From: Thermodesulfobacteriota bacterium
GTDB taxonomy: Bacteria; Desulfobacterota; Desulfarculia; JACQYL01
Direction of reading: 5' to 3'
Length of the DNA stretch: 64,000 nt
Assembly: GCA_963675595.2 (NCBI GenBank)
Contig: CAXXLZ010000002.1
Location: forward strand, 576,001 to 640,000
Under the pieces are notes generated by a model. The model was not told the origin of the DNA, made no database searches, and saw only the letters and a list, made by a program, of their open reading frames with translations. Below, in pieces: positions 44,968 through 62,898 of this stretch. Each line of letters begins with the position of its first letter. Positions within the stretch are counted from its first letter, which is position 1. A program made the translations under genes and the position numbers.

Positions 44968-45375
44968 ATGGTAGGCGTGTTGATCATCACTCATCTGAGA
45001 CTTGCGGAAGAACTGCTGAAGACTGCCGAATTCATCGTGGGAAGAATACAACAGGTGCGTACTCTGTGCTTGGCCCCGGACACCGATGTCGACCATCTGC
45101 ACAAAGACATCGAAAAAGCGATTAAGGAAGTCGACGACGGAGACGGCGTGTTGCTCCTTGTGGACATGCTCGGCGGAACCCCTTCGAATTTGGGGCTTTC
45201 CTTTCTGGAAGAAGGCCGCATCGAAGTGGTCACGGGAGTGAACCTCCCCATGGTGCTGAAACTCGCGAACCGCGGCGATCAATCAACCCTGTCCGAAGTA
45301 GCCGGTGAGATTCTCAACGCGGGACAGCGCGGCATTTCTTTGGCAGGCGACATATTGAACTGGAAGAGCCGATAG
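44968..45375 (+). CDS. PTS mannose-family EIIA
   Basis: IITH, DMLGGTPSN, GVNLPM. Confidence 0.92.
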   Translation: MVGVLIITHLRLAEELLKTAEFIVGRIQQVRTLCLAPDTDVDHLHKDIEKAIKEVDDGDGVLLLVDMLGGTPSNLGLSFLEEGRIEVVTGVNLPMVLKLANRGDQSTLSEVAGEILNAGQRGISLAGDILNWKSR

Positions 45376-45378
45376 CCT

Positions 45379-45864
45379 ATGTCCCTGAGTCTTGTCCGTA
45401 TCGATTGCCGATTGATTCACGGGCAGGTACTGAACGCCTGGGTTCCCCATGTGCGATCGGACCGCATCGTGGTGGCGGATGACGATTTGGCGCTGAACAG
45501 TTTACGTCAAGCGATCATATCCGCTTCGGTGCCTCGGTCCCTGGAGGTCAAAATCGACACGGTGGAAGGCGCCGTGACCGACCTGTTACGGAACGGTTCG
45601 GGGAAGAATAGAGTGCTCCTTCTCTTCTCCGATTGTCGTAATGCCCGGAGGGCCTATTCCCTGGGACTGCATTTTCCCGCAATCAACGTGGGAAACATCC
45701 ATTTTTGTGAAGGAGCGCACGCCGTAACCTCGAGCGTGGCTTTGAGCGCGGCGGATTACAATTGTCTTAAGGAACTTGAGTGGGAAGGCGTGGAAGTTGA
45801 GCTTCGAGCGGTACCCGGAGATCGACGCCTCCGTCTCAAAGATATAGCGTCGATTGCCCAGTAG
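45379..45864 (+). CDS. PTS mannose-family EIIB
   Basis: RIDCRLIHGQV, INVGN. Confidence 0.92.
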   Translation: MSLSLVRIDCRLIHGQVLNAWVPHVRSDRIVVADDDLALNSLRQAIISASVPRSLEVKIDTVEGAVTDLLRNGSGKNRVLLLFSDCRNARRAYSLGLHFPAINVGNIHFCEGAHAVTSSVALSAADYNCLKELEWEGVEVELRAVPGDRRLRLKDIASIAQ

Positions 45865-45994
45865 CTTCCGGGGGACCGCCCCCCTCCGCCCCGGCCCATC
45901 GAAACACGGTCCCATTCCCCATAGGGCGGTCAGGCCGATTTCTGAAGCCGTCCGGTGTTCTCACATTACGCATACCCGTCCAACGGATGGAAGA

Positions 45995-46678
45995 ATGGTC
46001 TGGTTCTGTCTAAAACTGAGCCTGTTTGGCGCTCTCCTGTGGCTGGACCGTTCCCATGCGTTCCAGTTCATGATCAGTCGTCCCATCGTTGCCGGGCCCC
46101 TTGTGGGTCTATGTCTCGGGAATCCTTTAGACGGGCTGATCGTAGGGGGCATGCTCGAATTGTTGTGGGCTAGAAACCTTCCCTTGGGAAGCAGCGCGCC
46201 GCCTGATGAAACAATGATCGCCCTTCTGCTGCCGGCGGTGGGCGCCCTGGGTGTCGACACCGGGCTGGAAAGCAGGCACGCGGACTTGATGTACGGATTC
46301 TGGATATTCCTGCCCGCGGCCTATTTCAACCGAAGGATGGATATGAAACTTCGCGCGCTGAACAACCGGCTCAACCGGGCCGCCCTGCGCGCCGTGGAGC
46401 GAGGAAACCCGGAGAAAATCGGACGCTACAATCTCGCGGGCATGATTCCGGCCTATTTCACTACCGCTTCAGTCCTGTTTCTGTGCGGACTCGCCGGCCT
46501 CTCCTTCTTTCTTTATACCTTCCCGCTGTTGCCCAAGCCGGTACTCAAAGCACTGGACCTGATGGTTTACGTAGTCCCGCTTCTTGGAGTGGCTTCGGCT
46601 CTCCACAACGTCAAGGGAATCAAGAACGTACTGATCCTTACGGGTTCTTTCGCACTTTTTGTGATTCTGCTGAAATGA
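45995..46678 (+). CDS. PTS mannose-family EIIC
   Basis: QFMISRPIVAGPLVG, GGMLELLW..LPLGSSAPPD. Confidence 0.88.
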   Translation: MVWFCLKLSLFGALLWLDRSHAFQFMISRPIVAGPLVGLCLGNPLDGLIVGGMLELLWARNLPLGSSAPPDETMIALLLPAVGALGVDTGLESRHADLMYGFWIFLPAAYFNRRMDMKLRALNNRLNRAALRAVERGNPEKIGRYNLAGMIPAYFTTASVLFLCGLAGLSFFLYTFPLLPKPVLKALDLMVYVVPLLGVASALHNVKGIKNVLILTGSFALFVILLK

Positions 46679-47133
46679 GCCCTCCCCTCCCCTGCAGGAT
46701 CACTCCTGTTGAAGAAGAAGACCTTCCCTGGGTTGCCTCCGTGGCCCGAACCGCTTTCCTCGACCCATGGACCTTGGAGATGTTCCGAGACGAGTTCCGA
46801 AAACCCGAGACCCTCACCTGCAAAGGAAGTTTCGGAGGAGTTCCGGCGGGGTATATTTTCTGTGCCCGAATCCTGGATGAGTGGGAGATCCTGAGTCTGG
46901 CGGTTGAATCCGCGTTCCGTCGCCTCGGTACGGCCCGCGCTCTCCTGGATGAGACGGTACGGCAGGCACGGAATTCTTCCTGTCGCAGGATTCTTCTGGA
47001 GGTGAACGAAGGGAACGCGCCTGCGATCGCCCTGTACGAAGGATTCGGGTTTCAGGCGATGGGGCGTCGCCCCGGGTACTATCCGGAGGACGGTTCGGAC
47101 GCTCTGCTGATGGAACTTCTAATCCACCCTTAA
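46675..47133 (+). CDS. rimI: Ribosomal protein alanine N-acetyltransferase
   Basis: LAV..RRLGTA, LLEV..N..AIALYEGFGF..GRRPGYY. Confidence 0.88.
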   Translation: MSPPLPCRITPVEEEDLPWVASVARTAFLDPWTLEMFRDEFRKPETLTCKGSFGGVPAGYIFCARILDEWEILSLAVESAFRRLGTARALLDETVRQARNSSCRRILLEVNEGNAPAIALYEGFGFQAMGRRPGYYPEDGSDALLMELLIHP

Positions 47134-47305
47134 AATCGACCTGCAATTGTAACCCCGAAGTCGTTTGTGCTATCCTTTTTATTGATTCTTTTGTCAGGGT
47201 TGAAGACATGATCCTTATATTGCCGGCATGGCGGCCCCGGGGTTGTCGCCGGTACGGACGCGACCGGCGATCGTTTTGTGCCGCAGTACTCGCGGAAGTG
47301 TCGGA

Positions 47306-50300
47306 ATGGATATAAATCCGAAAATCACTCGCAGGCTCAGAGAGATTCCCATTAAATCTCAGGCGCTGGCCGCCAACCTTGCGGCTTGCCCGGTCCATGA
47401 CACCATTAACGATGAGTTCATGGTGCTCCGGAATGTGATCGCCGAATATGCGGGCCTGGTCCAATCCACAAATGAGTTTCTCTGCGAATTGGGCCACCCC
47501 ACCAAGAATTGGCGCTACATTATCGATGAGGCAAAGGCCTACGCCCTGAAGTTTCTTCATCTCATTCGCCGCCATCCCAACGGACCCGAGGCGGCGGAAG
47601 TGTTGGTTTCCGTGTTCCTGAACGCTTCGGCGGAAGCCAAGGACCCCGCTGTACGTGCGGACGCGCTGGATTACCTGATCCTGTTTCTGGAAAGGTTGTC
47701 GGGAGAATTGCAGGGGCCCGCAGACTCCTTTGCTTCCGTGGTGCCGGGCGCCTTATCGAAACTGAAAGCTCTTTCGGACGAGCTGTTCTTGCCGGTTGCG
47801 TCCGGCCTCTATCCCTTGGACAAGGCCGTTCGAGTTTTCGTGGAACGCACCGATTTTCAGGTGGGGACCTCGGTTTGCATCGAGATTCTCATGCGTTATT
47901 ACCGCACCGTATACGACTACTGGTTGGCACAGGAAGACCCCCAACCCTGGCTGGAGAACGAGACCGGCATGCCGGTTTCCGACCCCAAGGCGGCGGAATT
48001 GTTCCGGACGGTATCCCACGAGGCCATTCACAAGCACCTTGAAACCATGCGTCAATTGTCGCACCTGGACGGCACGGCGCGGCTCAAAGGCTTGTTGGCT
48101 CTTCCCGGTTACAAAGCCTGGGTGTCCACCTACCGGACTCTCGCCCTCCGTCTGGCTTCGTCGCAGGATTCGACTCCCGAGGATATGGTTCGAAAGATGA
48201 TCTTCCTGTTCAGGATCATCGACATTCAGGGGCTGGCCAGGATTCACGAAGAAGTTCTCCGCCAACTGAACCGAACACTTGGATGGATTCTCGCGGGTCA
48301 AGACCGTGAAACCGTGGCCGACCTCGTGAAAAAGACCTTCGACGTGCTCAAACGCAGCGCGGACCGATACCCCCAAACCGCTCTGGACTGCATCCAAAGC
48401 ATGGGGCGGAATATCATCTCCTCCGACGATCTCGAATTGGCCGATTTCTTCGTCAGATGGACCGTAGCTTTCGGTTTTCAGTACCCGAGGGTTTCCGGGA
48501 TGAACGAGGATTGGCAGGTTCTGGCCAACGACGCCCATCTGAAAAACATCCGAGTATGGCTGGACCTCATCAAGACCAATCCTTTCAGGACCAAGAGACT
48601 GCTCTCGGCCCTGGTGATCAATTTGGCGCTCGGCGGCGTATTTATTCGAGACACGGACCTTTTTCCCAGAGACGTGACCGATCTGTTGAATGCGGAGGTT
48701 CGCCCCGTATACAACCTGGTAAAGCAGTTCGCCCGACTTCTTCCCGTATATTTCAACGACATCGGAGCCGAAGGGGAGCTCAGGGACATATCTACGGAAA
48801 TGGACGAAGTCCATCGACGGAACGATCGGCTCGTGCACTTCCTGAGAAAACAGACCCACGTGGAAAGCAGCAACCTCACCGTGCTGCTGGCTGAACGGAC
48901 TTTGGGGTTCTGGTTGAACCGGGACAAGGAACCTCTCCGGGAACTGCTGCCGCCTTCCATTTTCGACTGGATCCAGGACTCGGGGCCCTATGTGGACGGA
49001 GCCCACGTGGTTCTTGGAGAACTCATGGAGGGATTGGGCGCCTCAAAGATCCAGGACTTGCAGACGCCCGCGCGAGAGGCCATCGAATCCAGAATTCGCA
49101 ACGTCCGCCAGGTTTCCGAAGGTGAAAAGACACGGGTGCGCCTGGTGATCCGTCTGTATCGGCTTCTCTTCCAGAAGTACAATCTGGGTTTCCAGGACTT
49201 CGCCGCCCAGCTCAAGCCTTACGAAGTCATGGGGTTTCCCCGAATCCCCCAGTTACTCAAAGGCCTCAAGAGCCGTTCCATCGCCGGCCGTCTGGACGCA
49301 GCCATCAGTTACCTCGAAACCCTGCAGGAGACCATTCTGTCCCCCGAGGTGTTCCCCGCCACCGAGGATATCTACCGCAAGCGCCACATCGCCGTGGATA
49401 TTCCCAGCATGTACGGGAGCTATCATGAACGAAAGTTCGACGGCCTGAGCCTGACCTTCCGTCTGGAAAACATGGTCAACGTCTGGTTTGAGGAGCTCAA
49501 TGCTCAGATCAATCTGGGATTCATCACCCACGCCACGTTTTTCGACATCTATAAATATCTCAAGCTGTTCCAGAGAGCCCTGGGGGTCGACGGCATCACC
49601 TCGCGTGAACTCGATCACCAGATGGAATTGCTGAGCCGCGCCATGATGGAGCGGGAGTTCGAGCTTTCCCAGTACATCGACGTGTTCAACGGGCTTTCCG
49701 AGGCGGTAAAAAAAATCTTGGACATCCATTACCACAGCGCCTATACGGAGAACTTGGCCCAGATCATCGAGCGGATGGGTATCGATGATTTTCTGCCGAA
49801 GTACGTAAAGGGTTCGCTGGGGGAGGACCGGGCGGAACTCGAGCAGGCCGTGATCGAGCAGTTCCTTAGGGAACGCATTTTCCGGGCCCTGGCCATGCAG
49901 CCTCTGGACAACTTCCTCAATCGAATCCGGCACACTCTGTACGAGGAACTCGACACGGTGCCTCCGGGACAGGCCCGGTTGCTTCTGAGTTACGACCCGC
50001 GGAAAACCATTTGCCCCATCCATCGTCCCAGGCCTTCGGTGAACGATATCATTCACCTGGGTAACAAGGGGTATAACCTGGTTAAGTTGGCCGCCTTGGA
50101 TGTGCCCGTTCCTCAGGGATTCATCATTACCACGGAAGCATTCCGCTGCCGGAGCGTCATCGAAAGGTTCGGTCCCGCCGCCAAGGACTTCCGCGCCCGT
50201 ATTCGGCGCATGGTCCGGGCCATGGAAAAGCAGACCGGCCTTCGGTACGGCGACCCCGAACGTCCTTTGCTCCTCTCCGTGAGAAGCGGCGCGGCGGTAT

Positions 50301-51517
50301 CACAGCCGGGTATGATGGAGACTTTCCTCAACGTGGGGATCAACGAAAACGTGGCACAAGGTCTTGCCACGACAACCGGGAACGGTTGGTTTGCCTGGGA
50401 CTGTTACCGCAGATTTCTGCAAAGCTGGGGCATGTCTCACGAGCTGGAACGAGACGTTTTCGACCGGCTGATGAGGAAATTCAAGAAATTCAAGGGCGTG
50501 GAGTACAAAAGGGAATTTCGGCCTTCGGACATGCGCGACTTGGCCATGAATTATCGGGAAGTCCTGATCGAAAAAAGAGTGGAACTGCCCGATGATCCCT
50601 ACGAGCAACTTTTCGCCACCATCGGCCGCGTATTGGATTCGTGGGATGCGCCCAGGGCCTCGGCCTATCGAAGAATCATGGGCATGTCGGATAGTTGGGG
50701 GACGGCCGTTACCGTGCTCCGAATGATTTACGGAAATCTCAACGACAGTTCGGGATCGGGCGTGGTGTTTTCTCATAGTCCGTTATATCCTGGGGGCAAC
50801 ATCCGTCTGTGGGGAGACTTCACACTCAGAGATCAGGGCGAGGACGTGGTTTCCGGCCTGGTCAGGACACTGCCCATCAACAGACAACAGGCAAAGATTG
50901 AGGACAGGGAAGACCTCCCTTCCATGGATATTCTTTACCCGGAAGTGTACGAGGCGTTGGAAGCCGTGGTGCGGAATCTTGTGGAAGACCGGAACTGGGG
51001 ACCCCAGGACATTGAGTTCACATTCGAGAACCCGACGAAAGACGGACTTCACATTCTACAGGCCAGGGATATGGGTCTAAGAGAACATCGTGAAGAAGCC
51101 GTATTCAATGTCACCGGGAATCTATCCGGTAAGCTCCTCGCTCGGGGACTCGGCGTCAGCGGAGGCGCCATGAGCGGGCGCGTCGTGTTCAGTCTGGAAG
51201 AAATCGAGCGTTGGCGGAAAGACGAACCCGAGACTTCGCTGATTCTGCTGAGATCCGATACCGTACCGGACGACATCAAGGAAATCTGGGCCGCGGACGG
51301 CCTGCTCACCGCAAGAGGAGGCTCCACCTCCCATGCTTCCATTGTGGCCTATCGATTGGGCAAGACCTGTGTCGTAGGATGCAAGGCGCTGTCGTGCCAC
51401 GAGGATGATCGTTATTGCACACTGGACGGTCTGCGAATCGAAGCCGGGGAAGTGCTGTCCATCGACGGCAGGAGCGGTGAGGTCTACGAGGGAAGGATTC
51501 CCATCTCGGCCTCCTGA
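47306..51517 (+). CDS. PPDK-like dikinase: ~900-aa N-terminal region, ATP-grasp and phospho-His domain; no C-terminal PEP/pyruvate barrel
   Basis: LGNKGYNL..VPVPQGF, SVRSGA..PGMM, QGEDVVSG, QDIEFT, LQAR, GGSTSHASIVA; ends ~55 aa after the His motif. Confidence 0.85.
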   Translation: MDINPKITRRLREIPIKSQALAANLAACPVHDTINDEFMVLRNVIAEYAGLVQSTNEFLCELGHPTKNWRYIIDEAKAYALKFLHLIRRHPNGPEAAEVLVSVFLNASAEAKDPAVRADALDYLILFLERLSGELQGPADSFASVVPGALSKLKALSDELFLPVASGLYPLDKAVRVFVERTDFQVGTSVCIEILMRYYRTVYDYWLAQEDPQPWLENETGMPVSDPKAAELFRTVSHEAIHKHLETMRQLSHLDGTARLKGLLALPGYKAWVSTYRTLALRLASSQDSTPEDMVRKMIFLFRIIDIQGLARIHEEVLRQLNRTLGWILAGQDRETVADLVKKTFDVLKRSADRYPQTALDCIQSMGRNIISSDDLELADFFVRWTVAFGFQYPRVSGMNEDWQVLANDAHLKNIRVWLDLIKTNPFRTKRLLSALVINLALGGVFIRDTDLFPRDVTDLLNAEVRPVYNLVKQFARLLPVYFNDIGAEGELRDISTEMDEVHRRNDRLVHFLRKQTHVESSNLTVLLAERTLGFWLNRDKEPLRELLPPSIFDWIQDSGPYVDGAHVVLGELMEGLGASKIQDLQTPAREAIESRIRNVRQVSEGEKTRVRLVIRLYRLLFQKYNLGFQDFAAQLKPYEVMGFPRIPQLLKGLKSRSIAGRLDAAISYLETLQETILSPEVFPATEDIYRKRHIAVDIPSMYGSYHERKFDGLSLTFRLENMVNVWFEELNAQINLGFITHATFFDIYKYLKLFQRALGVDGITSRELDHQMELLSRAMMEREFELSQYIDVFNGLSEAVKKILDIHYHSAYTENLAQIIERMGIDDFLPKYVKGSLGEDRAELEQAVIEQFLRERIFRALAMQPLDNFLNRIRHTLYEELDTVPPGQARLLLSYDPRKTICPIHRPRPSVNDIIHLGNKGYNLVKLAALDVPVPQGFIITTEAFRCRSVIERFGPAAKDFRARIRRMVRAMEKQTGLRYGDPERPLLLSVRSGAAVSQPGMMETFLNVGINENVAQGLATTTGNGWFAWDCYRRFLQSWGMSHELERDVFDRLMRKFKKFKGVEYKREFRPSDMRDLAMNYREVLIEKRVELPDDPYEQLFATIGRVLDSWDAPRASAYRRIMGMSDSWGTAVTVLRMIYGNLNDSSGSGVVFSHSPLYPGGNIRLWGDFTLRDQGEDVVSGLVRTLPINRQQAKIEDREDLPSMDILYPEVYEALEAVVRNLVEDRNWGPQDIEFTFENPTKDGLHILQARDMGLREHREEAVFNVTGNLSGKLLARGLGVSGGAMSGRVVFSLEEIERWRKDEPETSLILLRSDTVPDDIKEIWAADGLLTARGGSTSHASIVAYRLGKTCVVGCKALSCHEDDRYCTLDGLRIEAGEVLSIDGRSGEVYEGRIPISAS

Positions 51518-51572
51518 GGAGGCACACTATAATCCGTTGCGAACCATCATTAGCCAAGGAGGAAACCCTGTA

Positions 51573-52820
51573 ATGGAAAGTGGACGTAAGATCGGCATCA
51601 ACGGATTGGGAAGAATTGGAAAAATGACTCTTTGGCACCTCCTGGCCGATTCCCATTTCAGCGAAATCGTCGTCAACATCGGACGTGAAGTGGGAACCGC
51701 ATTCAAGGACCTGATACATTTTGTCGAAAAGGATTCCACCTACGGACAACTTTCCACCTACCTGTATGGATGTAAAGGGGGACCGGTGGTCACGGAGGTG
51801 GACGAGGCCGACAAGCGGTTGGTGATGAACGATATCTCCGTCAAGTTTCTTATGAACGCGCGTAATCCCAGAGAAATCGCCTGGGCGGACCACGAGGTTT
51901 CCCTGGTGCTGGACGCTACGGGTCGATTCCTGGACCCGACCCTTCCGCCGGAGGACCCCAAGGGCTCGTGTAGAGGACACCTGGAAGCCGGTGCTCACAA
52001 AGTCATCACCTCCGCCCCGTTCAAAATTAAGGACAAGACCAAACCCATGCCGGACGACGCGGTAACCCTGGTCATGGGAGTGAATGAGCACAAATTCGAT
52101 CCGGCAGTGCACTCGGTGGTTTCCAATGCCTCCTGCACCACGAATTGCCTGGCCCACATGGTGAAGCCGCTTCTCGACCACTTCGGGATCAAACGGGTGC
52201 TCAGCGCGTCCATGGCTACGGTACACGCCGCAACGGGCAGCCAGAACGTCCTGGACCGGCTTCCGGGCACCGGCGACACGGACTTGCGGAAATCCCGCAG
52301 CATCATGAACAACATCATCCTGACCTCCACGGGAGCCGCCAGAGCTTTGGCCCTGGTGATCCCCGAAATGAAGAAGATCGGGTTCATGGCGGAGTCCGTG
52401 CGCATTCCCACCAGCACCGGGTCCCTCATCATCCTGGTGGTGAATCTCCAGGAAGAGGAAGGAGAACCCATCCGCAGGGATACCATCAACCGCATTTATC
52501 AGGAAGCCTCATTACGGGATAGCCGAGGCTACCTCCGTTATACGGAGGAACAAAACGTCTCGTCCGACATCATCGCTTATCCCAAGGCCACCACGATCAT
52601 CGAAGGCCACGAAACCCATACTCGGACCGCCATGGCCATGGTGGACCTGTCCAAAGTTCGTGCCTGTCCCGCATCTTTGCTGGAATCGCTGGCGGAGACC
52701 CATATTGAGGTCCCCATCACTCAAACGGTGATCTACGGCTGGTACGACAACGAGTTGGCGAGCTACGTGCGGGCTCTGTGCGACTGCGCCGTGTATGTGG
52801 ACCAGTTGATGGAGACTTAA
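51573..52820 (+). CDS. Divergent glyceraldehyde-3-phosphate dehydrogenase-like protein
   Basis: [31 protein letters not shown]; several insertions; RBS AAGGAGG. Confidence 0.88.
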   Translation: MESGRKIGINGLGRIGKMTLWHLLADSHFSEIVVNIGREVGTAFKDLIHFVEKDSTYGQLSTYLYGCKGGPVVTEVDEADKRLVMNDISVKFLMNARNPREIAWADHEVSLVLDATGRFLDPTLPPEDPKGSCRGHLEAGAHKVITSAPFKIKDKTKPMPDDAVTLVMGVNEHKFDPAVHSVVSNASCTTNCLAHMVKPLLDHFGIKRVLSASMATVHAATGSQNVLDRLPGTGDTDLRKSRSIMNNIILTSTGAARALALVIPEMKKIGFMAESVRIPTSTGSLIILVVNLQEEEGEPIRRDTINRIYQEASLRDSRGYLRYTEEQNVSSDIIAYPKATTIIEGHETHTRTAMAMVDLSKVRACPASLLESLAETHIEVPITQTVIYGWYDNELASYVRALCDCAVYVDQLMET

Positions 52821-53171
52821 CGGGAGGAATTGCCGCGTTGCTCGAGCAAAGAGAGGCACCACAACAAAGAGGAGGGTGCATGCAACAAACCGTATCCCGG
52901 TTCGGTTGATCTCCCTCTTCGCCTTGCTGCATGAACTTCGAACGGCAATCATGCTCGACTCGATTGCCGTCGGGGACAGATCCGGCGTCTCGTTATCCTG
53001 ATCGCGACCATTCAAGTCCGCCCAAAGATGATAACGGCTGCTTAACGAATTTGAGCCGATATCTAGTTGCGCGAAATCAAACAGAAAGAAGTTGACGGCC
53101 CCCGGATTTCGTGGTTCAAGTACCCGAACTATTTTGTATTATTCTTCAGTACGAAGGAAAGGGACGCAAAA

Positions 53172-54185
53172 ATGGCTACCAGAATAGCAATCAATGGATT
53201 TGGAAGGATCGGCAGGAATGTTGCCCGAGCCATCCTGCAACGGGATGCCGACGTGGAAATCGTGGCGGTAAACGATTTGGGGAGCGCCGCGGAGTTGGCC
53301 CATCTGTTGAAATATGATTCCGTCCACGGTACGATCAAGGACGAGGTGGCGGCGGAAGGCGATTCCATTCGCGTGGGGAAACGGGTTTTCAAGTGCCTGC
53401 GCGTTACGGATGATCTGCGTAATCTGCCCTGGGGAGATCTGGAGGTGGACGTGGTTCTGGAATGCACGGGCATCTTCCGGGATCGTGAAAACGCGGGAAA
53501 GCACATTGAAGCCGGCGCCCGCAAAGTCATCATCAGCGCACCGGGCAAGGGAGTCGACACCACCATCGTGATGGGGGTCAACCACACTTCGTACAATCCA
53601 ATGGAACACCACGTGGTGTCCAATGCGTCCTGCACGACCAATTGCCTTGCCCCCGTGGCGAAAGTCCTGCACGAAACTTTCGTGATTCTGAGGGGCCTCA
53701 TGACCACGGTGCATTCCTACACCATGGATCAGCGCATTCTGGACACCATGCATAAGGATTGGCGTCGGGCAAGAGCGGCGGCCTTATCCATGATTCCCAC
53801 GACCACGGGCGCGGCCACGGCGGTGGCTTTGGTGATTCCCGAGCTCAAGGGAAGACTCGACGGCATGTCCATCCGTGTTCCCACTCCCAACGTAAGCGTG
53901 GTCGACCTCGTGGCCGAGCTCGGACGAGACGTCACGGCCGATGAGGTGAACAAGGCCCTCAAATCCGCGGCCGAGGGGCCCATGAAGGGCATTCTGCAAT
54001 TTTGCGAGGAGCCGCTGGTCAGCGCCGATTTCAATACCAACAACCATTCTTCCATCGTGGACGCGGAGCTCACCAAGGTCATTGAGAAGCGCATGGTCAA
54101 GGTGATCTCATGGTATGATAACGAGTTCGGCTACTCGAACCGAACGGTGGATCTGGCCTTGTACATGGGCGGCATGCTGGATTAG
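53172..54185 (+). CDS. gap: Type I glyceraldehyde-3-phosphate dehydrogenase
   Basis: [33 protein letters not shown]. Confidence 0.97.
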
Positions 54186-54266: not shown

Positions 54267-55445
54267 ATGAACAACATCGAGCAAATGGAACTCGAAGGCA
54301 AGCGGGTGTTCCTGAGGGTGGACTTCAACGTGCCTCTGGACTCCGCCGGCAAAATCACCGACGACAATCGGATCCGCATGGTGCTCCCCACCATCCGGTA
54401 CGCTTTGGATCACGGGGCCTGCTTGGCCTTGGCTTCGCATATGGGAAGACCCAAAGGAGAACGCAAGCTCGAGTTCAGCTTGAGGCCCGCTGCGGATCGC
54501 TTAGGTGAGATTTTAGGCAGGCCGGTGGACTTGGCTCCGGATTGCATCGGCCCGGAGAAGGAGTCTCTCATTCGCGAGATGAAGGCCGGCGACCTGGTCC
54601 TGCTTGAAAACCTGCGTTTTCATCCCGGGGAAACCAAGAACGACGAGTCCTTCGCCAGGGAGCTTTCCCTGGGTACCGAGGTATTCATCAACGACGCCTT
54701 TGCCGCGTGCCACCGGGCTCACGCCTCGGTAGCCGCCATCGTGAAGTTCTACAAAGAAAAGGGAGCGGGATTTCTGCTCCGCAAAGAGATGGAGACCTTC
54801 GAACAGTCGGTGAAAAAACCCGAACGTCCTTTCGCGGCCATCATCGGCGGGGCCAAGGTTTCCGATAAGCTGGGCGTCCTCGACAACCTGATCAACCTGG
54901 TGGATATCCTGTTGATCGGAGGCGCCATGGCCAACACCTTCCTGCGCGCCCAGGGTTATAACACGGGCAAGTCCCTGGTTGAGGAAGACCTGGTCGAGAC
55001 CGCGGCCAAGTTGATGAAGCGGGCCGAAAGCCTGGGCAAGGTATTGCTTGTGCCTACGGACGCGGTGACCGGCGCGGAACTGAGCGCGGATACTTCCACG
55101 CGGCTGACATCGGTGAAGGACGTCCGATCGGATGAGATGATCCTGGACATCGGTCCGGATACGGTGGATCGTTACAAGAAGGCCCTCGTGGGCGCCAAGA
55201 CCATTGTTTGGAACGGTCCCGTGGGAGCTTTCGAGCTCGAGCCCTTCAGCAAGGGGACTTTCGCTCTGGTGGATGCCGTGGCCGCTTCCTCGGCCTTTTC
55301 GGTCATCGGAGGAGGAGACACGGGCGCGGCCGTAGCCCGTTCCGGAAAGAAGGAACAGGTTTCCTATATTTCAACGGGTGGGGGGGCCTTCCTCGAACTT
55401 CTCGAAGGCAAGACCCTGCCGGGCGTGGCCGCATTGGAAGAATAG
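54267..55445 (+). CDS. pgk: Phosphoglycerate kinase
   Basis: [27 protein letters not shown]. Confidence 0.98.
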
Positions 55446-55478: not shown

Positions 55479-56249
55479 ATGTCCGAACCTCGCGTCCCGC
55501 TCATCGCGGGCAACTGGAAGATGAACAAGACCATCGGAGAGGCGAAGGATCTAGCTCGAGAAGTCGTCGGCGGCGGTCGCCCCTCCGGAGTGCAGGTTAT
55601 GCTTGCGCCTCCTTTTACCGCTCTTTCGGCCGTTGCGGAGGTGGTAAACAACACCGACGTGGTCCTGGCTGCTCAGAACATGCATTGGGAGGATTCGGGA
55701 GCGTTTACCGGAGAGATTTCACCGGTCATGCTCACGGATCTGGGCGCAAAAATGGTGATCGTTGGACATTCTGAGCGACGTCACGTGTTCCATGAAACGG
55801 ACGAAGCGATCAACCACAAGGTCCAAAGCGCTCTGAATCATGGTTTGACGCCCATTCTCTGCATCGGTGAAACCCTCGAAGAGCGAAAGGCGGATAAGGT
55901 GTTCGGCGTGATCGCCGCCCAACTCGAAGGGGGACTTTCGGGATTGGACGCCGAGAGGATGGCCCGCGTGATCATCGCCTACGAGCCGGTATGGGCCATC
56001 GGCACGGGCGTGAACGCCACTCCCGAACAGGCTCAGACCGTCCATCAGCTCATCAGAGAACAACTGTCGGAACTATTCAATAAAGGGCTTGCCATGAATA
56101 CGCGGATATTATATGGTGGCTCTGCTAAAGCGGCCAACGCGGCGGAACTCATGGCCCAACCGGACGTGGACGGGCTCCTTGTGGGAGGAGCCGCACTGAA
56201 TGCCCAAGAGTTTTTGGGCATCATCAATTTTGAGCATAGGGGAAGTTGA
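55479..56249 (+). CDS. tpiA: Triosephosphate isomerase
   Basis: AGNWKMN, GHSERR, AYEPVWAIGTG, LYGGS. Confidence 0.98.
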   Translation: MSEPRVPLIAGNWKMNKTIGEAKDLAREVVGGGRPSGVQVMLAPPFTALSAVAEVVNNTDVVLAAQNMHWEDSGAFTGEISPVMLTDLGAKMVIVGHSERRHVFHETDEAINHKVQSALNHGLTPILCIGETLEERKADKVFGVIAAQLEGGLSGLDAERMARVIIAYEPVWAIGTGVNATPEQAQTVHQLIREQLSELFNKGLAMNTRILYGGSAKAANAAELMAQPDVDGLLVGGAALNAQEFLGIINFEHRGS

Positions 56250-57321: not shown

Positions 57322-60300
57322 ATGAACGACGGCCTCCACGATGATGGTCTTGAACGAGCGGCCCACACGGATCGGCTGGGGGAACTGAGGGCCCTCAACC
57401 TGTTCGGCCAAAGAATTCACGAGAGCCTTGAGGAGGAGGAAATTCTCCGTCTCGGTATTGATGCGGTTTTCCAGACATTGGCGCCCAATCTGGCTGTGAT
57501 CTACCGTCTCGAAGGAGAGGACCTCGTGGTTCGTGCGCACCGAGCTCGAGAAATCATCATGGAAGACTTGGAGAAGTTCGCGCACAAGAAAGGAGATTGC
57601 CTTTGCGGCATCGCCGCGGAGCGCGGAGAATCCGTCTTCTCCCTCAATATCTTCGACGACCCTCGCTGTACCCTCCCGGAGTGCAAATCCGCCGGGCTGC
57701 AATCCTTCGCTAGTGTTCCTCTTCGCTTCCGTAACGAACTCATTGGAGTCCTCGCGGTGGGCTCGACAAGAGAGCGTGACCTCACTCTTCATGTCGAGTT
57801 CCTCCAGTCGTTGGCTTCCATGCTTTCCATCGGCCTTCATCGGGCTCATATGCATCGGGAACTCACCCGTCGTGCGGACGACCTGCAGCAGGCGGTTCGC
57901 GCTCGGACTTCCGAACTGGAGGCGGCACATCATCGACTTCGCCAAGACCTCGAAGAAAGAAAGCGTCTCGAACTGGAAAGGGAGCGATCCGGTTCGCTCT
58001 TGTCGGCAATCCTGGACTCCCTTCCTCAGAACATCGCAGTTCTGGATTCCTCGGGCGTCATCACCCTGGTGAATCGATCCTGGTGCGAGTTCGCGGAAAC
58101 AAACGGTCCCGTGGATCCGGCAAAAACCGGAGCCGGGACGAACTATCTGGAGATCGCGCGCAGCGCAACGGGGCCCGACGCTTCCGTCGCCCATGATACG
58201 GCTCGCGGCATCGCGCAGGTTCTATCCGGTTCGATCCCTTCCTTCAGTATGGAATATCCGTGCCATTCACCCGACACGAAACGATGGTTTCTTTTTCAGG
58301 CCGTTCCTCTCAAGGCTGCAAACAAAATCAAAGGGGTTGTGGTTTCACACCTGGACATCACCAAACGAAAGTTCACCGAGGAAGCGCTCCGAGCCAGCGA
58401 GGAACGTTTCATACAGATCACCCGTCAAAGCCGTGAGATGGTGTGGGAGGTTGATTCCGAGGGACTCTACACTTATGTAGGCGACGCTTCGGAGTCGGTT
58501 CTCGGTTACCTGCCCGATGAATTGATCGGCAAGGTGCATTTCTATGATCTTCACCCTGAGGAGGGCCGTGAAGCTTTCAAGAAATGCGCCTTTGAAATTT
58601 TCGCTCGAAAGGAAGGCTTCAAAGAATTCTTGAACCCCGCCCTGACCAAAGACGGACAATGGGTCTGGCTTTCCACCAGCGGAATACCCATTTTGGACCG
58701 GTCCGGCAACTTGTCCGGTTACCGAGGGTCCGACAGCGACATCACCGAGCGGAAACACAACGAAGAAGCTCTGCGGATCAGCGAGGAAAACTATCGCACC
58801 ATCTTCAACTCGGTGGGGGATGCCATCGCAATTTTGGATATCGAAACCGGGGATTTCCTGGACCTCAACGAGCGCGTTACGGACCTCCTCGGATATTCCG
58901 TTGCAGAAGCCAAAGAGCTGGGGAACCGCCTAAGTCTGGGATCGGTAGAGCAAGCGGACCTATTGCGGGATCGTGCCGTGTGGGAAGGGCCTCAATCCTT
59001 CGAATGGCCCCTCGCGAATAAGGAAGGGCAAACCGTTTGGGTCGAAGTTCATCTGGAGAAAGTCAGACTCCAAGGTGTGGACCGTCTGTTGGCCGTGGCA
59101 CGGGACATCGACGAAAGAAAGCGTGCTGAACGGATTGTCAAAAAGAACGAGGCCCGCCTTCAGGCTTTGATGAACTTGAATCTCATGCAACAGACCTCTG
59201 AAAGAGACTTCGCCGAGTACGCCTTGGAAGAAATTGTGCGGATTTCGGACAGCAGGGTCGCCTACTTTCATTTCGTGCACGCGGAGCAAGAAACCGTTTC
59301 CCTGTTTGCCTGGTCCCGTGCCGCCAGGGAAGGCTGCATTCTCCCCAAGACGCCCCACTATTCTCTGTCTATCGCCGGCATTTGGGCGGATTGCGTCAGA
59401 ACAGGTCAACCCACCGTGCATAACGATTACGCGAATCACCCGGACAGAAAGGGACTGCCCCCGGGTCACACGCCTCTCACGCGGCACATGAGCGTTCCCA
59501 TTTTCGACGAAGGCGGTGTGGTGGCCGTTGTCGGAGTAGGCGATAAGAAGGAGCCCTACGACGCGGTCGACGCACAGCAGCTGAGCGAGTTCGCGGTCAA
59601 GATGTGGGACACGCTCAAACAGAAGAAAGCACAACAGGCCTTGCGTGAAAGTGAAGAAACGCTCCGGACCGTGACATCCTCAACCCATGACGCCATTTTC
59701 ATCGTGGATGAACAAGGCCGCATCACCTTCTGGAATTATGCGGCGGAGAAGCTGTTCGGTTATGGCGCCTCGGAAATACTGGGACAGGAACTGTTCCTGG
59801 TCTTTCCTTCGCTTGTCAATGTGCGCGACGCCGCTTCCGATGAAGTTTTCTCGGCACATTACGCAGGCAAAGCCACGGAGCTGCCCGCACGGCATAAGAA
59901 CGGGCGGGAACTCTCGGTTGAGTTGTCCCTGGCGCAGGCCTTGCTCAAGGACGCACGTTGCGGAATCGGCATCGCCCGGGACATCAGCCAACGTAAGGAG
60001 ATGGAACGACTGCGCGAAGACGTGGATCGGGTTATGCGCCATGATCTGAAGTCCCCCCTGAACTGCGTCATTGGATTTCCTCAGATCCTTATGATGGACG
60101 ACAATCTCACGCCCAGACAGGAGGAAATGCTCAAGCTCATTGAGGAGGCCGGTTATCAGTTGCTGAATCAAATAAATATGTCCCTGGATCTGTACAAAAT
60201 GGAAACCGGACAGTATCAATACCAACCCAAGCGCGTCGACATCGTCAAACTTCTCAACCGATTGATCCGGGAGTTCACCCCCAAATGCGGCTATCGGATG

Positions 60301-60687
60301 GTTTCTCTGAAAGGAAACATCAACGGTACTCCCATCGAGCATCACGATCGGCTGTTCATCCAGTCCGAGGAACTGCTTTGTTACACCATGCTGTCGAACC
60401 TCATCGACAATGCCATCGAAGCTTCTCCTTCGGGAGAGTCCGTTAGCATCGATGTTGCCGAGCGAAACCGCGGGGTTTCCATATCCATTCACAACCATGG
60501 GCAAGTTCCCGAGCCCGTACGCGACAAATTTTTCGAGAAATATACGACCCACGGCAAGGTCAAAGGAACGGGTCTGGGAACCTATAGTGCCAAACTCATT
60601 GCGGAGGTTCAGGGCGGCACCATCGGTTTCGAAACATCCAGGGATCGAGGCACCACGGTGAGCGTTCTTCTGCCCCGAGACCAGTAA
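57322..60687 (+). CDS. Cytoplasmic GAF/PAS sensor histidine kinase
   Basis: GAF-PAS x3-GAF-PAS, then RHDLKSPL H-box, NLIDNAIEA, GTGLG. Confidence 0.93.
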   Translation: MNDGLHDDGLERAAHTDRLGELRALNLFGQRIHESLEEEEILRLGIDAVFQTLAPNLAVIYRLEGEDLVVRAHRAREIIMEDLEKFAHKKGDCLCGIAAERGESVFSLNIFDDPRCTLPECKSAGLQSFASVPLRFRNELIGVLAVGSTRERDLTLHVEFLQSLASMLSIGLHRAHMHRELTRRADDLQQAVRARTSELEAAHHRLRQDLEERKRLELERERSGSLLSAILDSLPQNIAVLDSSGVITLVNRSWCEFAETNGPVDPAKTGAGTNYLEIARSATGPDASVAHDTARGIAQVLSGSIPSFSMEYPCHSPDTKRWFLFQAVPLKAANKIKGVVVSHLDITKRKFTEEALRASEERFIQITRQSREMVWEVDSEGLYTYVGDASESVLGYLPDELIGKVHFYDLHPEEGREAFKKCAFEIFARKEGFKEFLNPALTKDGQWVWLSTSGIPILDRSGNLSGYRGSDSDITERKHNEEALRISEENYRTIFNSVGDAIAILDIETGDFLDLNERVTDLLGYSVAEAKELGNRLSLGSVEQADLLRDRAVWEGPQSFEWPLANKEGQTVWVEVHLEKVRLQGVDRLLAVARDIDERKRAERIVKKNEARLQALMNLNLMQQTSERDFAEYALEEIVRISDSRVAYFHFVHAEQETVSLFAWSRAAREGCILPKTPHYSLSIAGIWADCVRTGQPTVHNDYANHPDRKGLPPGHTPLTRHMSVPIFDEGGVVAVVGVGDKKEPYDAVDAQQLSEFAVKMWDTLKQKKAQQALRESEETLRTVTSSTHDAIFIVDEQGRITFWNYAAEKLFGYGASEILGQELFLVFPSLVNVRDAASDEVFSAHYAGKATELPARHKNGRELSVELSLAQALLKDARCGIGIARDISQRKEMERLREDVDRVMRHDLKSPLNCVIGFPQILMMDDNLTPRQEEMLKLIEEAGYQLLNQINMSLDLYKMETGQYQYQPKRVDIVKLLNRLIREFTPKCGYRMVSLKGNINGTPIEHHDRLFIQSEELLCYTMLSNLIDNAIEASPSGESVSIDVAERNRGVSISIHNHGQVPEPVRDKFFEKYTTHGKVKGTGLGTYSAKLIAEVQGGTIGFETSRDRGTTVSVLLPRDQ

Positions 60688-60885: not shown

Positions 60886-62898
60886 ATGGAACAAGCCCCA
60901 AGAAGGTGTTCCGTGCATCGCAGTCGGATTCTTGAACTCAGCCTCACGGAAGTCGCCGGTCTCGTGCTGGTGCTGTTCGGTCTCTACCTCACAAGCCTCT
61001 ACAGCTTTCATCTGTTTCATACCTCGGTGGAACTGTTCAGCATTGTGGTGGCTGCCGGTATCTTCATCGTGGCTTGGAACACGAGGAGAATCAGTTCCAA
61101 CCCCTACATTCTGTTCATCGGCGTCGCCTATCTTTTCGTAGGCCTCCTGGACCTGCTGCATACCACCACCTACACAGGCATGGGGGTTTTCAAAAGGTTG
61201 GGTTCCGACCCACCTATCCAGTTCTGGATCGCGGCCCGTTACTTGGAATCCTTATCTCTGCTCGCGGCCCTGCCTCTTTCAAGGCGCAATTTCTCCGCAG
61301 TGCGCCTGCTCGCGGCTTTCTTCACCGTCACGGCCCTGACCACCGCCGCAATTTTCGGAAACGTCTTCCCCTCCTGTTATGAAGACGGCTTGGGAGTAAC
61401 CCGGTTCAAAACAGTAAGCGAATACCTGATCACCGTCATCCTTCTGATGACCATGGCTCTGACCTGGAAAAACCGGGAAAGCTTCCACACTCCGGTATTC
61501 CGCTGCATGATACTTGCCATGCTTACCACGGCCGCGGCTGAGCTATCCTTCTCCAATTACGTCGGCTTATTCGGCTTTTTCAATAAATTCGGCCACTATA
61601 TGAAGGTTCTATCATTTTATTACATCTACAAGGCCACGATCCAATCCAGCCTCCAAAATCCCTATGAAGTACTCTTTGCCGACCTGAGGCGAAACCAGGA
61701 GGAACTCGCCCGCGCCAAACAGATCGCCGAAAACGCCGACAAGTCCAAGAGCGACTTCATCGCACATACCAGCCACGAGGTACGTACTCCATTAAACGCG
61801 ATCAGCGGTCTCCTGCAATTGCTTCAGGACACCCCGCTGACGCGGCAGCAGCGAGAGTACGTGCGCTTGGCCTCGGCTTCGTCCGCCAGTTTAATCCTTA
61901 TCTTGAACGATATCCTCGATATTTCCCGCGTTGAAGCGGGTAAACTGGAAATCAACGAAGCCCCCTTCTCTTTCGAGGCCGCCGTTGAGCACGTGCTCTC
62001 CATGTTTCGTTTTCAGGCCGAGGCCGGCGGCATTCGAATCGTCTACTCGGCTCAATCCCCCATTCCGGATCGACTGGTGGGAGACGTCGAACGGTTGAAG
62101 CAAGTGCTGGCAAACCTGGTGGGTAATGCGGTCAAGTTCACGGAAAGAGGCAGGGTGGAAATACACGCCAAGGTCCAAAGCCTGAACGAAAACCCCGGCG
62201 AAGCGCTCCTGCGATTCTCCGTGACGGACAGCGGACCTGGAATCCCCGCCAACAGACTGGAGGCGATCTTTGAACCTTTTACCCAACTGGGGGGGCCTTT
62301 ATCTAAGAAAAAGAAAGGCGCAGGACTCGGCTTGGCCATCGTTAAACGTCTCACTAGTGCCATGGGGGGTGATATCAAAGTGGAAAGCCGACTTGGCATG
62401 GGAACAACCTTTCGAGTGGAGCTTCCTTTGATTTTACCGAAGGGTGAAGAGGCTCCACAACCCTCTCGTGAACCGACTATCGAGGCATCGATTGAAGTCC
62501 CCCCGCTGAATATCCTCGTAGCGGAGGACGACTCCGTGAACCGTTTGGTGCTCACCCGAATGCTGGAAAACGCCGGCCACACGGTAACCGCCGTGGAGGA
62601 CGGACGCGACGTGATGGAGGCTCTTGAAAAGGAGCCCTTCGATGTGCTCTTTCTCGATATCGAGATGGAAGAAATGGGCGGCATCGAAACAACGCGGATC
62701 GTCCGGGCATCGTCCAGAGAGGACTTGAGACAGGTCCGTATCGTGGCCTTAACGGGACATTCCATGGAAGGGGATCGGGAACGCTTCCTGGCGGAGGGCA
62801 TGGATGACTATGCCGCCAAGCCCATAGGCAAGGAGGAACTGGCTCGTGTCCTGGCAAGAGTGGTTGCGGATGAGTCCACCGGGGACTCTCGCGAGTAA
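60886..62898 (+). CDS. MASE3-like membrane hybrid histidine kinase with REC
   Basis: FHTSVELFSIVVA, DLLHT, QFWIAARY, SHEVRTPL, NLVGNAVKFT, VAEDD..LDIEM; start may be GTG 60913. Confidence 0.92.
   Translation: MEQAPRRCSVHRSRILELSLTEVAGLVLVLFGLYLTSLYSFHLFHTSVELFSIVVAAGIFIVAWNTRRISSNPYILFIGVAYLFVGLLDLLHTTTYTGMGVFKRLGSDPPIQFWIAARYLESLSLLAALPLSRRNFSAVRLLAAFFTVTALTTAAIFGNVFPSCYEDGLGVTRFKTVSEYLITVILLMTMALTWKNRESFHTPVFRCMILAMLTTAAAELSFSNYVGLFGFFNKFGHYMKVLSFYYIYKATIQSSLQNPYEVLFADLRRNQEELARAKQIAENADKSKSDFIAHTSHEVRTPLNAISGLLQLLQDTPLTRQQREYVRLASASSASLILILNDILDISRVEAGKLEINEAPFSFEAAVEHVLSMFRFQAEAGGIRIVYSAQSPIPDRLVGDVERLKQVLANLVGNAVKFTERGRVEIHAKVQSLNENPGEALLRFSVTDSGPGIPANRLEAIFEPFTQLGGPLSKKKKGAGLGLAIVKRLTSAMGGDIKVESRLGMGTTFRVELPLILPKGEEAPQPSREPTIEASIEVPPLNILVAEDDSVNRLVLTRMLENAGHTVTAVEDGRDVMEALEKEPFDVLFLDIEMEEMGGIETTRIVRASSREDLRQVRIVALTGHSMEGDRERFLAEGMDDYAAKPIGKEELARVLARVVADESTGDSRE

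Follow-up and report, generated by a model that had tools for sequence, protein, structure and literature searches.

The closest described relatives of the system analysed here are the pyruvate, phosphate dikinases (PPDK, EC 2.7.9.1; structures 1vbg, 1kbl, 1dik and 5jvn), in which an ATP-grasp domain and a swivel domain with a TSH-motif histidine are followed by a TIM barrel for phosphoenolpyruvate (PEP) or pyruvate. In a 64,000-nt stretch of DNA from a Thermodesulfobacteriota bacterium (contig CAXXLZ010000002.1; hereafter the window, to whose positions all coordinates refer), we studied a dikinase-like protein, DIK, which shares the first two of these domains, and the divergent glyceraldehyde-3-phosphate dehydrogenase (GAPDH) encoded just downstream, GAPL. 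DIK differs from PPDK in that it has no barrel and carries a helical addition of 914 aa instead, so that the order is new domain, ATP-grasp, His and not ATP-grasp, His, barrel. Its gene is linked to a GAPDH gene and not, as would be expected of a PPDK, to the PEP/pyruvate node. We found that DIK and GAPL form a conserved, near-obligately co-inherited unit.

A barrel-less derivative of PPDK has been described before: VadK (Rv1127c) is reported to autophosphorylate on its catalytic swivel histidine and to have enzymes of the methylcitrate cycle as interaction partners (10.1101/2025.10.30.685616). VadK is a protein of ~490 aa from Actinomycetes with no extra domain, whereas DIK adds its 914 residues, and the reported partners of VadK are methylcitrate-cycle enzymes and not a GAPDH. 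By analogy, VadK is the nearest functional precedent for a role of DIK directed at proteins. Our full-text literature searches, supplements aside, found no paper on the DIK family or on a dikinase-GAPDH pair; beyond the VadK preprint they returned nothing but work on dikinases of small molecules. The latter kind, represented by rifampin phosphotransferase (RPH), PigC/RedH/HapC, phenylphosphate synthase and the Hpe and MarK kinases, also combines ATP-grasp, His swivel and an acceptor domain of its own, and converts ATP to AMP. These acceptor domains are unrelated to that of DIK and differently placed (in RPH centrally, between the ATP-grasp and a C-terminal His domain, but N-terminal in DIK), and none of the enzymes is linked to GAPDH. 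The metabolic node that we propose for DIK and GAPL is the one served by phosphoglycerate kinase (PGK) plus GAPDH and by the archaeal GAPN and GAPOR bypasses. The PGK/GAPDH step is usually treated as freely reversible and common to every bacterium, and a large family of dikinases sits at it. GAPN and GAPOR show that the step can have one-way bypasses; both are catabolic and skip 1,3-bisphosphoglycerate (1,3-BPG), unlike the route proposed below, which would be anabolic and driven by the conversion of ATP to AMP.

DIK is encoded at 47306..51517 (+), as supported by the open reading frame (ORF), by Pfam and NCBIfam matches and by a database copy. The frame is open over 47228-51517 (+), and its long form starts 26 codons before Met27. 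The true start is most likely this Met27, at 47306: P0003, an identical protein in the database, is 1403 aa long, and in alignments the homologues do not begin before residue ~36-43 of the long form. A Pfam scan returned PF01326 PPDK_N (E 1.3e-26) and PF00391 PEP-utilizers (E 1.5e-16), no PEP-utilizers_C barrel and no match at all in the first ~940 residues. The PPDK-type ATP-grasp nucleotide-binding domain (50057..51070, +; Pfam, NCBIfam and alignment to 1vbg) includes the PPDK-specific helical segment and, at residues 1030-1042 (nt 50393-50431, +), the sequence AWDCYRRFLQSWG. It is followed by the phospho-histidine swivel domain (51122..51502, +; Pfam and alignment to 1vbg), in which the catalytic His1343 (codon nt 51332-51334, +) is intact in the motif GGSTSHAS. 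Both superfamily modules are thus present.

The last 495 aa of DIK align to residues 24-339 and 392-516 of maize PPDK (1vbg); in long-form numbering, residues 944-1281 and 1299-1425 align to PPDK 18-335 and ~392-516. The C-terminus of DIK coincides with the end of the His domain, 86 residues past the catalytic histidine, at the point where the linker to the barrel would start in 1vbg. The NCBIfam model for PPDK, TIGR01828, gave 388.3 bits against a cut-off of 843.45 and matched only model positions 18-335 of 865. The nucleotide domain is of the PPDK type and not of the PEP-synthase type (TIGR01828 388 bits versus TIGR01418 80 bits), and identity to PPDK-type matches in related genomes is ~38-40%. 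The models for RPH (NF041857, 27 bits, cut-off 999) and PigC (20 bits, cut-off 1300) scored far lower, and NF004531, which we take to represent the VadK-like kind (an ATP-grasp and a His domain alone, ~490-530 aa), reached 303.1 bits with a cut-off of 456. Judged by these comparisons, two of the three modules of DIK place it in the PEP-utilising dikinase superfamily, and it is not a normal PPDK; nor does it score as an RPH or as a protein of the VadK-type model. An earlier reading of the letters without database searches (the sequence-only reading) had pointed out the PPDK-type nucleotide domain with the AWDCYRRFLQSWG segment, the intact His motif, some 900 unrecognised residues at the N-terminus and an end right after the His domain without a TIM barrel, and had inferred from this that the protein is no normal PPDK. 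All of this agrees with the searches and with the 1vbg alignment. The host genome has a separate PPDK-type match at C2:138126-139604, in an open frame of 955 aa, a length that would suit a full PPDK.

The N-terminal domain of 914 aa (47306..50047, +) was studied by structure prediction, Foldseek, VIA-align and a profile search of the PDB. AlphaFold2, run with a 40-sequence alignment, modelled it as all-alpha with one beta hairpin (pLDDT 83.6, pTM 0.76), and the conserved core (residues 380-735; 48443..49510, +), delimited by a comparison of 62 sequences and modelled alone, reached pLDDT 90.3 and pTM 0.84. The domain is therefore not a barrel, and the pyruvate-binding fold that would have refuted the sequence-only reading is not what the models contain. 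With the whole domain, Foldseek against the PDB found only generic HEAT/ARM solenoids (best E 1.7e-4, TM-score at most 0.20), and with the core nothing better than E 0.5. VIA-align gave best Z scores of 9.4 for the whole domain and 6.8 for the core, both on helical bundles and both under the tool's stated noise level for helical proteins, a result that excludes no listed family. When the DIK family profile was run against all PDB sequences, there were 29 matches, every one at profile position 906 or beyond, and these were PPDK, PEP synthase, enzyme I and pyruvate kinase only. A search of the ESM Atlas with the N-terminal domain gave no usable match. In the searches made, the domain has no relative in Pfam, NCBIfam or solved structures.

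Across 62 sequences, down to 34% identity over the core stretch, sixteen polar residues of the core are invariant: H411, D449, E489, R493, D500, D507, R514, K515, H518, K624, Y625, E687, K692, R693, H694 and S701. They lie in part in the motifs DIGAEGxLRDIS, FLRKQxHVESSN and KRHxxVDIPSMYGSY. This mix of acidic and basic residues resembles an active site for phosphoryl chemistry, and the domain looks catalytic on that account; presumably it binds the acceptor or a partner.

The N-terminal 914 residues alone match at least 1416 database clusters at 90% identity, too many for a chance ORF. Nearly all of the 120 clusters listed are ~1390-1436 residues long with the same two Pfam domains, and in these 120 the only names are 'pyruvate, phosphate dikinase' and 'PEP/pyruvate-binding domain-containing protein'. 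The former is a misnomer, and metabolic reconstructions from metagenomes are corrupted by it. HMMER, run exhaustively over 1.84 billion representatives, gave 539 matches. The 19 of odd length were scanned: two have a hemerythrin domain added at the N-terminus, and the others are fragments or members of full length; P0208 is a divergent member cut by a contig end, and P0265 resembles a translation with a frameshift. Relatives of DIK are encoded at 576 loci in representative genomes, and their records are mostly labelled Desulfobacterales, Desulfobacteraceae, Desulfatiglans or Thermodesulfobacteriota (metagenome-assembled genomes); Delta 1 and Delta 3, symbionts of Olavius, are also among them. 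Of 401 genomes sampled evenly from the phylum of the window, 115 contained a full-length DIK match; by record title, the carriers include sulfate reducers, hydrocarbon degraders and symbionts of gutless worms.

Two variants of the family were seen. The hemerythrin (HHE cation-binding) domain is fused to the N-terminus in P0154 and P0159 and at the loci L131-L133, L144, L148 and L151, and six loci match the hemerythrin-fused query from its residue 1-19; such a fusion hints at control of the dikinase by O2, redox state or iron. In G107, a complete single-contig genome (L155, C1:681500-689000), DIK lies over two reading frames that cover residues 18-549 and 615-1398, which means that either the protein is made in two pieces or the frame has shifted, through decay or through a sequencing error; the GAPL of this genome retains the ETHTRT motif described below.

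Searching the same 401 genomes for GAPL at E ≤ 1e-90 gave 123 positives, which include all 115 genomes with DIK. The pair is adjacent in 90 of these: GAPL lies immediately downstream and co-directional in 67, and convergent (tail-to-tail) within 1.3 kb in 23. The linkage to the GAPDH gene on which the sequence-only reading had made its proposal depend thus recurs in other genomes. GAPL occurred without a DIK match in eight genomes, one of which (G247) really has a convergent DIK that is cut by the contig end, and four of which are merely 61-79% complete. The other three (G025, G149 and G341, 99-100% complete) remained without a match to the N-terminal domain of DIK when the threshold was relaxed to E ≤ 0.001. 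Among related loci gathered separately, three of which are the same contigs as loci from the 401-genome search, GAPL follows DIK in 65 of the 65 with at least 700 bp of downstream sequence (15 were too short). In a distant clade with 35-37% identity to DIK, to which the hemerythrin fusions belong, it was found downstream at 22 of 22 loci with room. The adjacency persists through the change of orientation and through unrelated surroundings.

Canonical GAPDH genes also accompany the pair. A canonical gap is directly upstream of DIK in seven of ten genomes checked (G141, G289, G203, G232, G316, G387 and G310) and likewise at the loci L025 and L027, and six genomes of one family have the triad gap-DIK-GAPL. 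Wood-Ljungdahl genes (acsB, cdhD and a pterin methyltransferase gene) precede DIK at 20 of the 44 loci with at least 4.5 kb of upstream sequence, many of them with records labelled Desulfobacterales or Desulfobacteraceae; at these loci, L063 and 19 others of the range L044-L123, DIK-GAPL lies directly downstream of the ACS/CODH genes. At ~13 loci, the pair is followed by genes for a multihaem cytochrome c and a molybdopterin oxidoreductase. PGK (PF00162) is encoded in all 115 genomes with DIK and in 391 of the 401 overall.

GAPL is a protein of 415 aa (51573..52820, +), identified from Pfam, NCBIfam and alignments as a divergent GAPDH of the phosphorylating type with insertions. Its ATG at 51573, preceded by the ribosome-binding site AAGGAGG, is 55 bp past the TGA of DIK (51515-51517), and identity to the canonical gap product of the window is 34%, so the divergent GAPDH that the sequence-only reading had placed 55 bp downstream is confirmed in position and in character. 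The alignment of the two has 79 gap columns, and GAPL has ~80 extra residues in about five insertions. Its Pfam domains are Gp_dh_N and Gp_dh_C. With type I GAPDH, especially the NADP-dependent gluconeogenic GapB kind, GAPL shares the fold, the catalytic Cys/His pair, the phosphate sites and the WYDNE motif; it is unlike type I GAPDH in its insertions, in the motif ETHTRT, in the replacement of Asp32, in co-inheritance with DIK and in its score with TIGR01534, the type I model (332.3 bits under a cut-off of 367.2; the canonical gap product of the window has 445.1).

Aligned to Geobacillus GAPDH (1gd1), GAPL retains Cys149, His176, Thr179, Arg231, Ser148, Thr150, Thr208, Gly209 and Asn313, and these catalytic and phosphate positions are invariant across 28 GAPL orthologues. 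The catalytic stretches SNASCTTNC and TVHAATGSQ align to 1gd1; the first (nt 52122-52148, +) holds the catalytic Cys188 of GAPL, whose partner is His218. In 1gd1, we take Cys149 and His176 to be catalytic, Thr179, Arg195 and Arg231 to bind the substrate phosphate, and Ser148, Thr150, Thr208 and Gly209 to form the inorganic-phosphate site. Position 195 is Lys in the GAPL of the window and Arg in some orthologues. We considered this Lys as a hallmark of GAPL and rejected it: it is invariant in 28 close orthologues, yet Arg in G069 and the hemerythrin clade. In two complete single-contig genomes (G069 and G107), GAPL is the sole match to Gp_dh_C, and in G310 and G056 it takes the gap slot of the order gap-rimI-pgk-tpiA-secG. 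The retained residues, the sole matches and the occupied gap slot make it most likely that GAPL works as a phosphorylating GAPDH. It lacks the NAD-specifying Asp32, with VNIGRE instead of VND, Asn35, Gly37 and Arg38 being invariant in the 28 orthologues, and the closest solved structure is 8wwz, 'GAPDH 2'. The loss of Asp32 and the match to 8wwz hint that GAPL may use NADP(H).

The largest insertion of GAPL, in its C-terminal part, opens with the motif E347-T-H349-T-R351-T (52611..52628, +), which was defined from orthologue alignments. Of the 113 distinct GAPL sequences (116 rows, all loci gathered), 110 have His349. The three sequences without it read ETYTHT, ETYAAP and ETETTF, and their genomes are the three without a match to the DIK N-terminal domain (G025, G149 and G341). 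The motif loss amounts to three cases only, in related genomes that are not independent. That ETHTRT tracks DIK would be the first residue-level sign of the two proteins working on each other. One of the three, the near-complete small genome G341, has at L126 (G341:C6:56000-66000) the order rpoN-hpf-rapZ-rimI-gap, then ~1.1 kb, then GAPL, with no DIK match genome-wide; its GAPL has lost both the His and the Arg of ETHTRT and ~17 residues of the following insertion, and the locus looks like a natural loss of DIK. Together with the canonical gap neighbours and the genomes with GAPL as the only GAPDH-family match, the tracking motif makes the link of DIK to the GAPDH step stronger than the sequence-only reading could know.

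We infer that ATP is the source of a phosphoryl group which the swivel histidine hands on to the new domain, and that the target lies within the GAPDH reaction. In the mechanism that we favour, though we would put it somewhat below an even chance, DIK and GAPL would be a two-protein module that supplies an ATP-to-AMP driven phosphoryl donor at the step between 3-phosphoglycerate (3-PG), 1,3-BPG and glyceraldehyde 3-phosphate (GAP). By homology, the ATP-grasp domain would pyrophosphorylate His1343 from ATP with release of AMP, and the gamma-phosphate would go to Pi, giving pyrophosphate (PPi), as in PPDK; this Pi/PPi chemistry is expected since the nucleotide domain is PPDK-like and not PEP-synthase-like. 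The phosphoryl group left on the histidine would then travel with the swivel domain to a new catalytic centre within the helical domain at the N-terminus, the replacement for the pyruvate barrel, and the carboxylate of 3-PG would accept the group to form 1,3-BPG. GAPL, acting as a phosphorylating GAPDH and probably using NADP(H), would reduce 1,3-BPG to GAP, and its His/Arg motif suggests that it touches DIK, at a site for docking or channelling or through a residue of a relay. Anabolism would thereby gain a route with a stronger driving force alongside PGK plus GapA; the same chemistry in reverse would make ATP from AMP and PPi. By textbook values, 3-PG + ATP + Pi -> 1,3-BPG + AMP + PPi is at about +4 kJ/mol, compared with about +19 for PGK, and removal of PPi pulls the AMP-forming reaction further. 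The replaced Asp32, the match to 8wwz and the Wood-Ljungdahl genes upstream make the reductive direction plausible. The acceptor, the direction, the product (PPi versus Pi) and a physical contact between DIK and GAPL are all what we infer from these comparisons. The acyl-phosphate chemistry, for example from 3-PG to 1,3-BPG, and the phosphorylation of a protein that the sequence-only reading had put forward as alternatives are likewise conjecture. Since PGK is present in all 115 genomes with DIK, DIK would be at most a parallel route, and replacement of PGK by DIK is ruled out. We also discarded a net cycle AMP + PPi -> ADP + Pi between DIK and PGK, which by textbook values is at about +14 kJ/mol. 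If DIK is catalytic, it would bring a new acceptor domain to the dikinase superfamily, and a new reaction with a new energy cost or saving to models of carbon flow in anaerobic sediments.

Several points weigh against such a module. With PGK universal among the carriers, the route is never needed for want of PGK, and it would spend two ATP equivalents where one suffices. A 900-residue domain resembling an alpha-solenoid would be an odd binder of a three-carbon acid, and its sole structural look-alikes, weak as they are (TM-score at most 0.20), are protein-binding scaffolds. The hemerythrin fusions and the VadK precedent point, by analogy, towards sensing or regulation, and a motif in GAPL that tracks DIK fits protein-protein phosphotransfer at least as well as transfer to a metabolite. 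The cofactor inference for GAPL is drawn from one sequence position. DIK and GAPL are non-adjacent in 25 of the 115 genomes (on different contigs in 21, far apart on one contig in three and 2.3 kb apart in one), and the genomes, being from one phylum, are related, so that the counts do not represent independent events.

The main rival is that DIK is a regulatory kinase of GAPDH, in which the phosphoryl group of His1343 would be passed to GAPL, canonical Gap or both, or in which DIK would merely bind them. His349 of GAPL would be the candidate site, the modification would switch activity or the direction of flux, and the helical domain would be a docking or sensing platform. We consider this unlikely on balance, though a serious contender. 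It would follow the precedent of another barrel-less PPDK derivative, as reported in the preprint on VadK (10.1101/2025.10.30.685616), and would account for a helical domain whose only look-alikes are protein scaffolds and for the hemerythrin sensor domain at the N-terminus of some members. It is also favoured by the loss of the ETHTRT histidine in exactly the three genomes without DIK, by the place of DIK in six genomes of one family, where a GAPDH isoenzyme is encoded on either side of it, and by the retention of PGK in all genomes with DIK. However, sixteen invariant polar core residues, with a cluster of Asp and Glu typical of metal or phosphate chemistry, exceed what docking usually needs; DIK is distant from the VadK-type model (NF004531, 303 versus 456 bits), and VadK has no helical domain. 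Nor did the comparison of neighbourhoods find a two-component or phosphotransferase system (PTS) partner conserved beside DIK-GAPL. If DIK were regulatory, GAPDH would for the first time be seen under phospho-histidine control, and the conversion of a PPDK into a kinase for metabolic enzymes would have happened a second time, independently.

In a further reading, DIK and GAPL would form a phosphorelay complex for a PGK-independent, AMP-forming reduction of 3-PG that is absent from the metabolic map. Here ATP would charge the swivel histidine, the helical domain would dock GAPL, the phosphoryl group would be delivered to 3-PG in or close to the active site of GAPL, perhaps by way of His349 in the ETHTRT loop, and 1,3-BPG would be made and consumed without release. 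This would give anaerobic autotrophs and complete oxidisers a one-way gluconeogenic step, analogous to PEP synthase or to PPDK versus pyruvate kinase. We regard it as rather unlikely.

DIK might also phosphorylate another small molecule that does no more than touch the GAPDH step, turning an acid into an acyl phosphate for GAPL or acting on a cofactor or on a storage or compatible solute, with a non-glycolytic substrate for GAPL. The choice of acceptor in this superfamily lies with the third domain; rifampin phosphotransferase, the prodigiosin ligases and the phenol and hydroxyphenylethanone kinases are examples. The ligand of DIK is not readable from homology, because its acceptor domain has no known relative, and this, together with the score of GAPL below the type I cut-off (332.3 versus 367.2 bits), leaves room for such an acceptor. 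We nevertheless think it quite unlikely: GAPL retains the residues for both phosphates of 1,3-BPG, it is the sole GAPDH-family match in two complete genomes and has the gap slot beside pgk in two others, and DIK pairs with canonical gap too.

Running the favoured module in the catabolic direction, GAPL would oxidise GAP to 1,3-BPG and DIK would make ATP from AMP and PPi, both supplied by sulfate activation, as a PPi-dependent counterpart of PGK that would be to PGK what PPDK is to pyruvate kinase. PPDK is reversible, and the reaction proposed here for DIK would be near equilibrium by textbook values. This direction would suit the PPDK-type nucleotide domain, the concentration of the family in records labelled Desulfobacterales, Desulfatiglans and Thermodesulfobacteriota, and the neighbourhood of DIK and gap-pgk in the window. 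Against it, GAPL has no NAD-specifying Asp32, which points to NADP(H) and to reduction, and the Wood-Ljungdahl linkage suits anabolism better. Such organisms are not known as sugar fermenters, and only a small lower-glycolytic flux is expected in them. We consider the catabolic direction very unlikely. Finally, that DIK is an ordinary PPDK, mis-called, truncated or decaying, whose place beside a GAPDH gene is a coincidence, is suggested by the database names pyruvate, phosphate dikinase and PEP/pyruvate-binding domain-containing protein and by the split gene of G107, but it is barely credible and already contradicted by the missing barrel, the uniform length of the family, the intact frame and conserved residues, the separate PPDK-type match in the genome (the 955-aa frame) and the co-occurrence with GAPL in 115 of 115 genomes.

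Around the pair, the window shows the gene order of its own lineage. Upstream are pyrG, kdsA, lptCAB, rpoN, hpf, ptsN, rapZ, genes for mannose-type EIIA, EIIB and EIIC and, directly before DIK, a gene for a rimI-type GNAT acetyltransferase (46483..47133, +); downstream of GAPL follow the canonical gap (53067-54185, +), pgk (54267-55445, +) and tpiA (55479-56249, +), then secG. The position ahead of gap-pgk-tpiA that the sequence-only reading had noted holds only in the window and in the taxonomic order to which it belongs, whereas elsewhere the neighbours differ; the canonical gap-pgk-tpiA set is context in the window's lineage and lies outside the conserved pair. The gene arrangement from rpoN to secG is common to the window's taxonomic order and, in part, to a distant small-genome family. 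A scan for terminators and promoters around DIK-GAPL found sites in numbers no higher than in shuffled sequence.

The mannose-family PTS genes for EIIA, EIIB and EIIC lie between rapZ and rimI in the rpoN-hpf-ptsN-rapZ cluster (44968-46678, +), and the set looks like a regulatory or partial PTS. A link of the pair to PTS genes (EIIA/B/C-Man, PtsN, RapZ) was considered and dropped: it is seen only in the window's taxonomic order and in part in family f36, and the PTS neighbours are read as ancestral gene order because they are not conserved elsewhere. The rimI-type product scored 94.8 bits with TIGR01575 (cut-off 86.4). In distant lineages, rimI recurs beside DIK, gap or GAPL (L130, L126, L128, L129 and L155), in the arrangements rapZ-rimI-DIK-GAPL, rapZ-rimI-gap...GAPL and GAPL-rimI-pgk-tpiA-secG, and it may be either a remnant of ancestral gene order or a third functional partner.

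Further away in the window, another giant ORF at 5347-9558 (-) also encodes 1403 aa and is unrelated to DIK; it has weak matches to CarboxypepD_reg-like, HYR and TTR-type repeats, as in a large surface or secreted protein. Just past secG, a sensor kinase of 1121 aa with GAF, PAS, HisKA and HATPase domains is encoded at 57322-60687 (+), and it is followed at 60886-62898 (+) by a gene for a MASE3 hybrid histidine kinase of 670 aa with a receiver domain.

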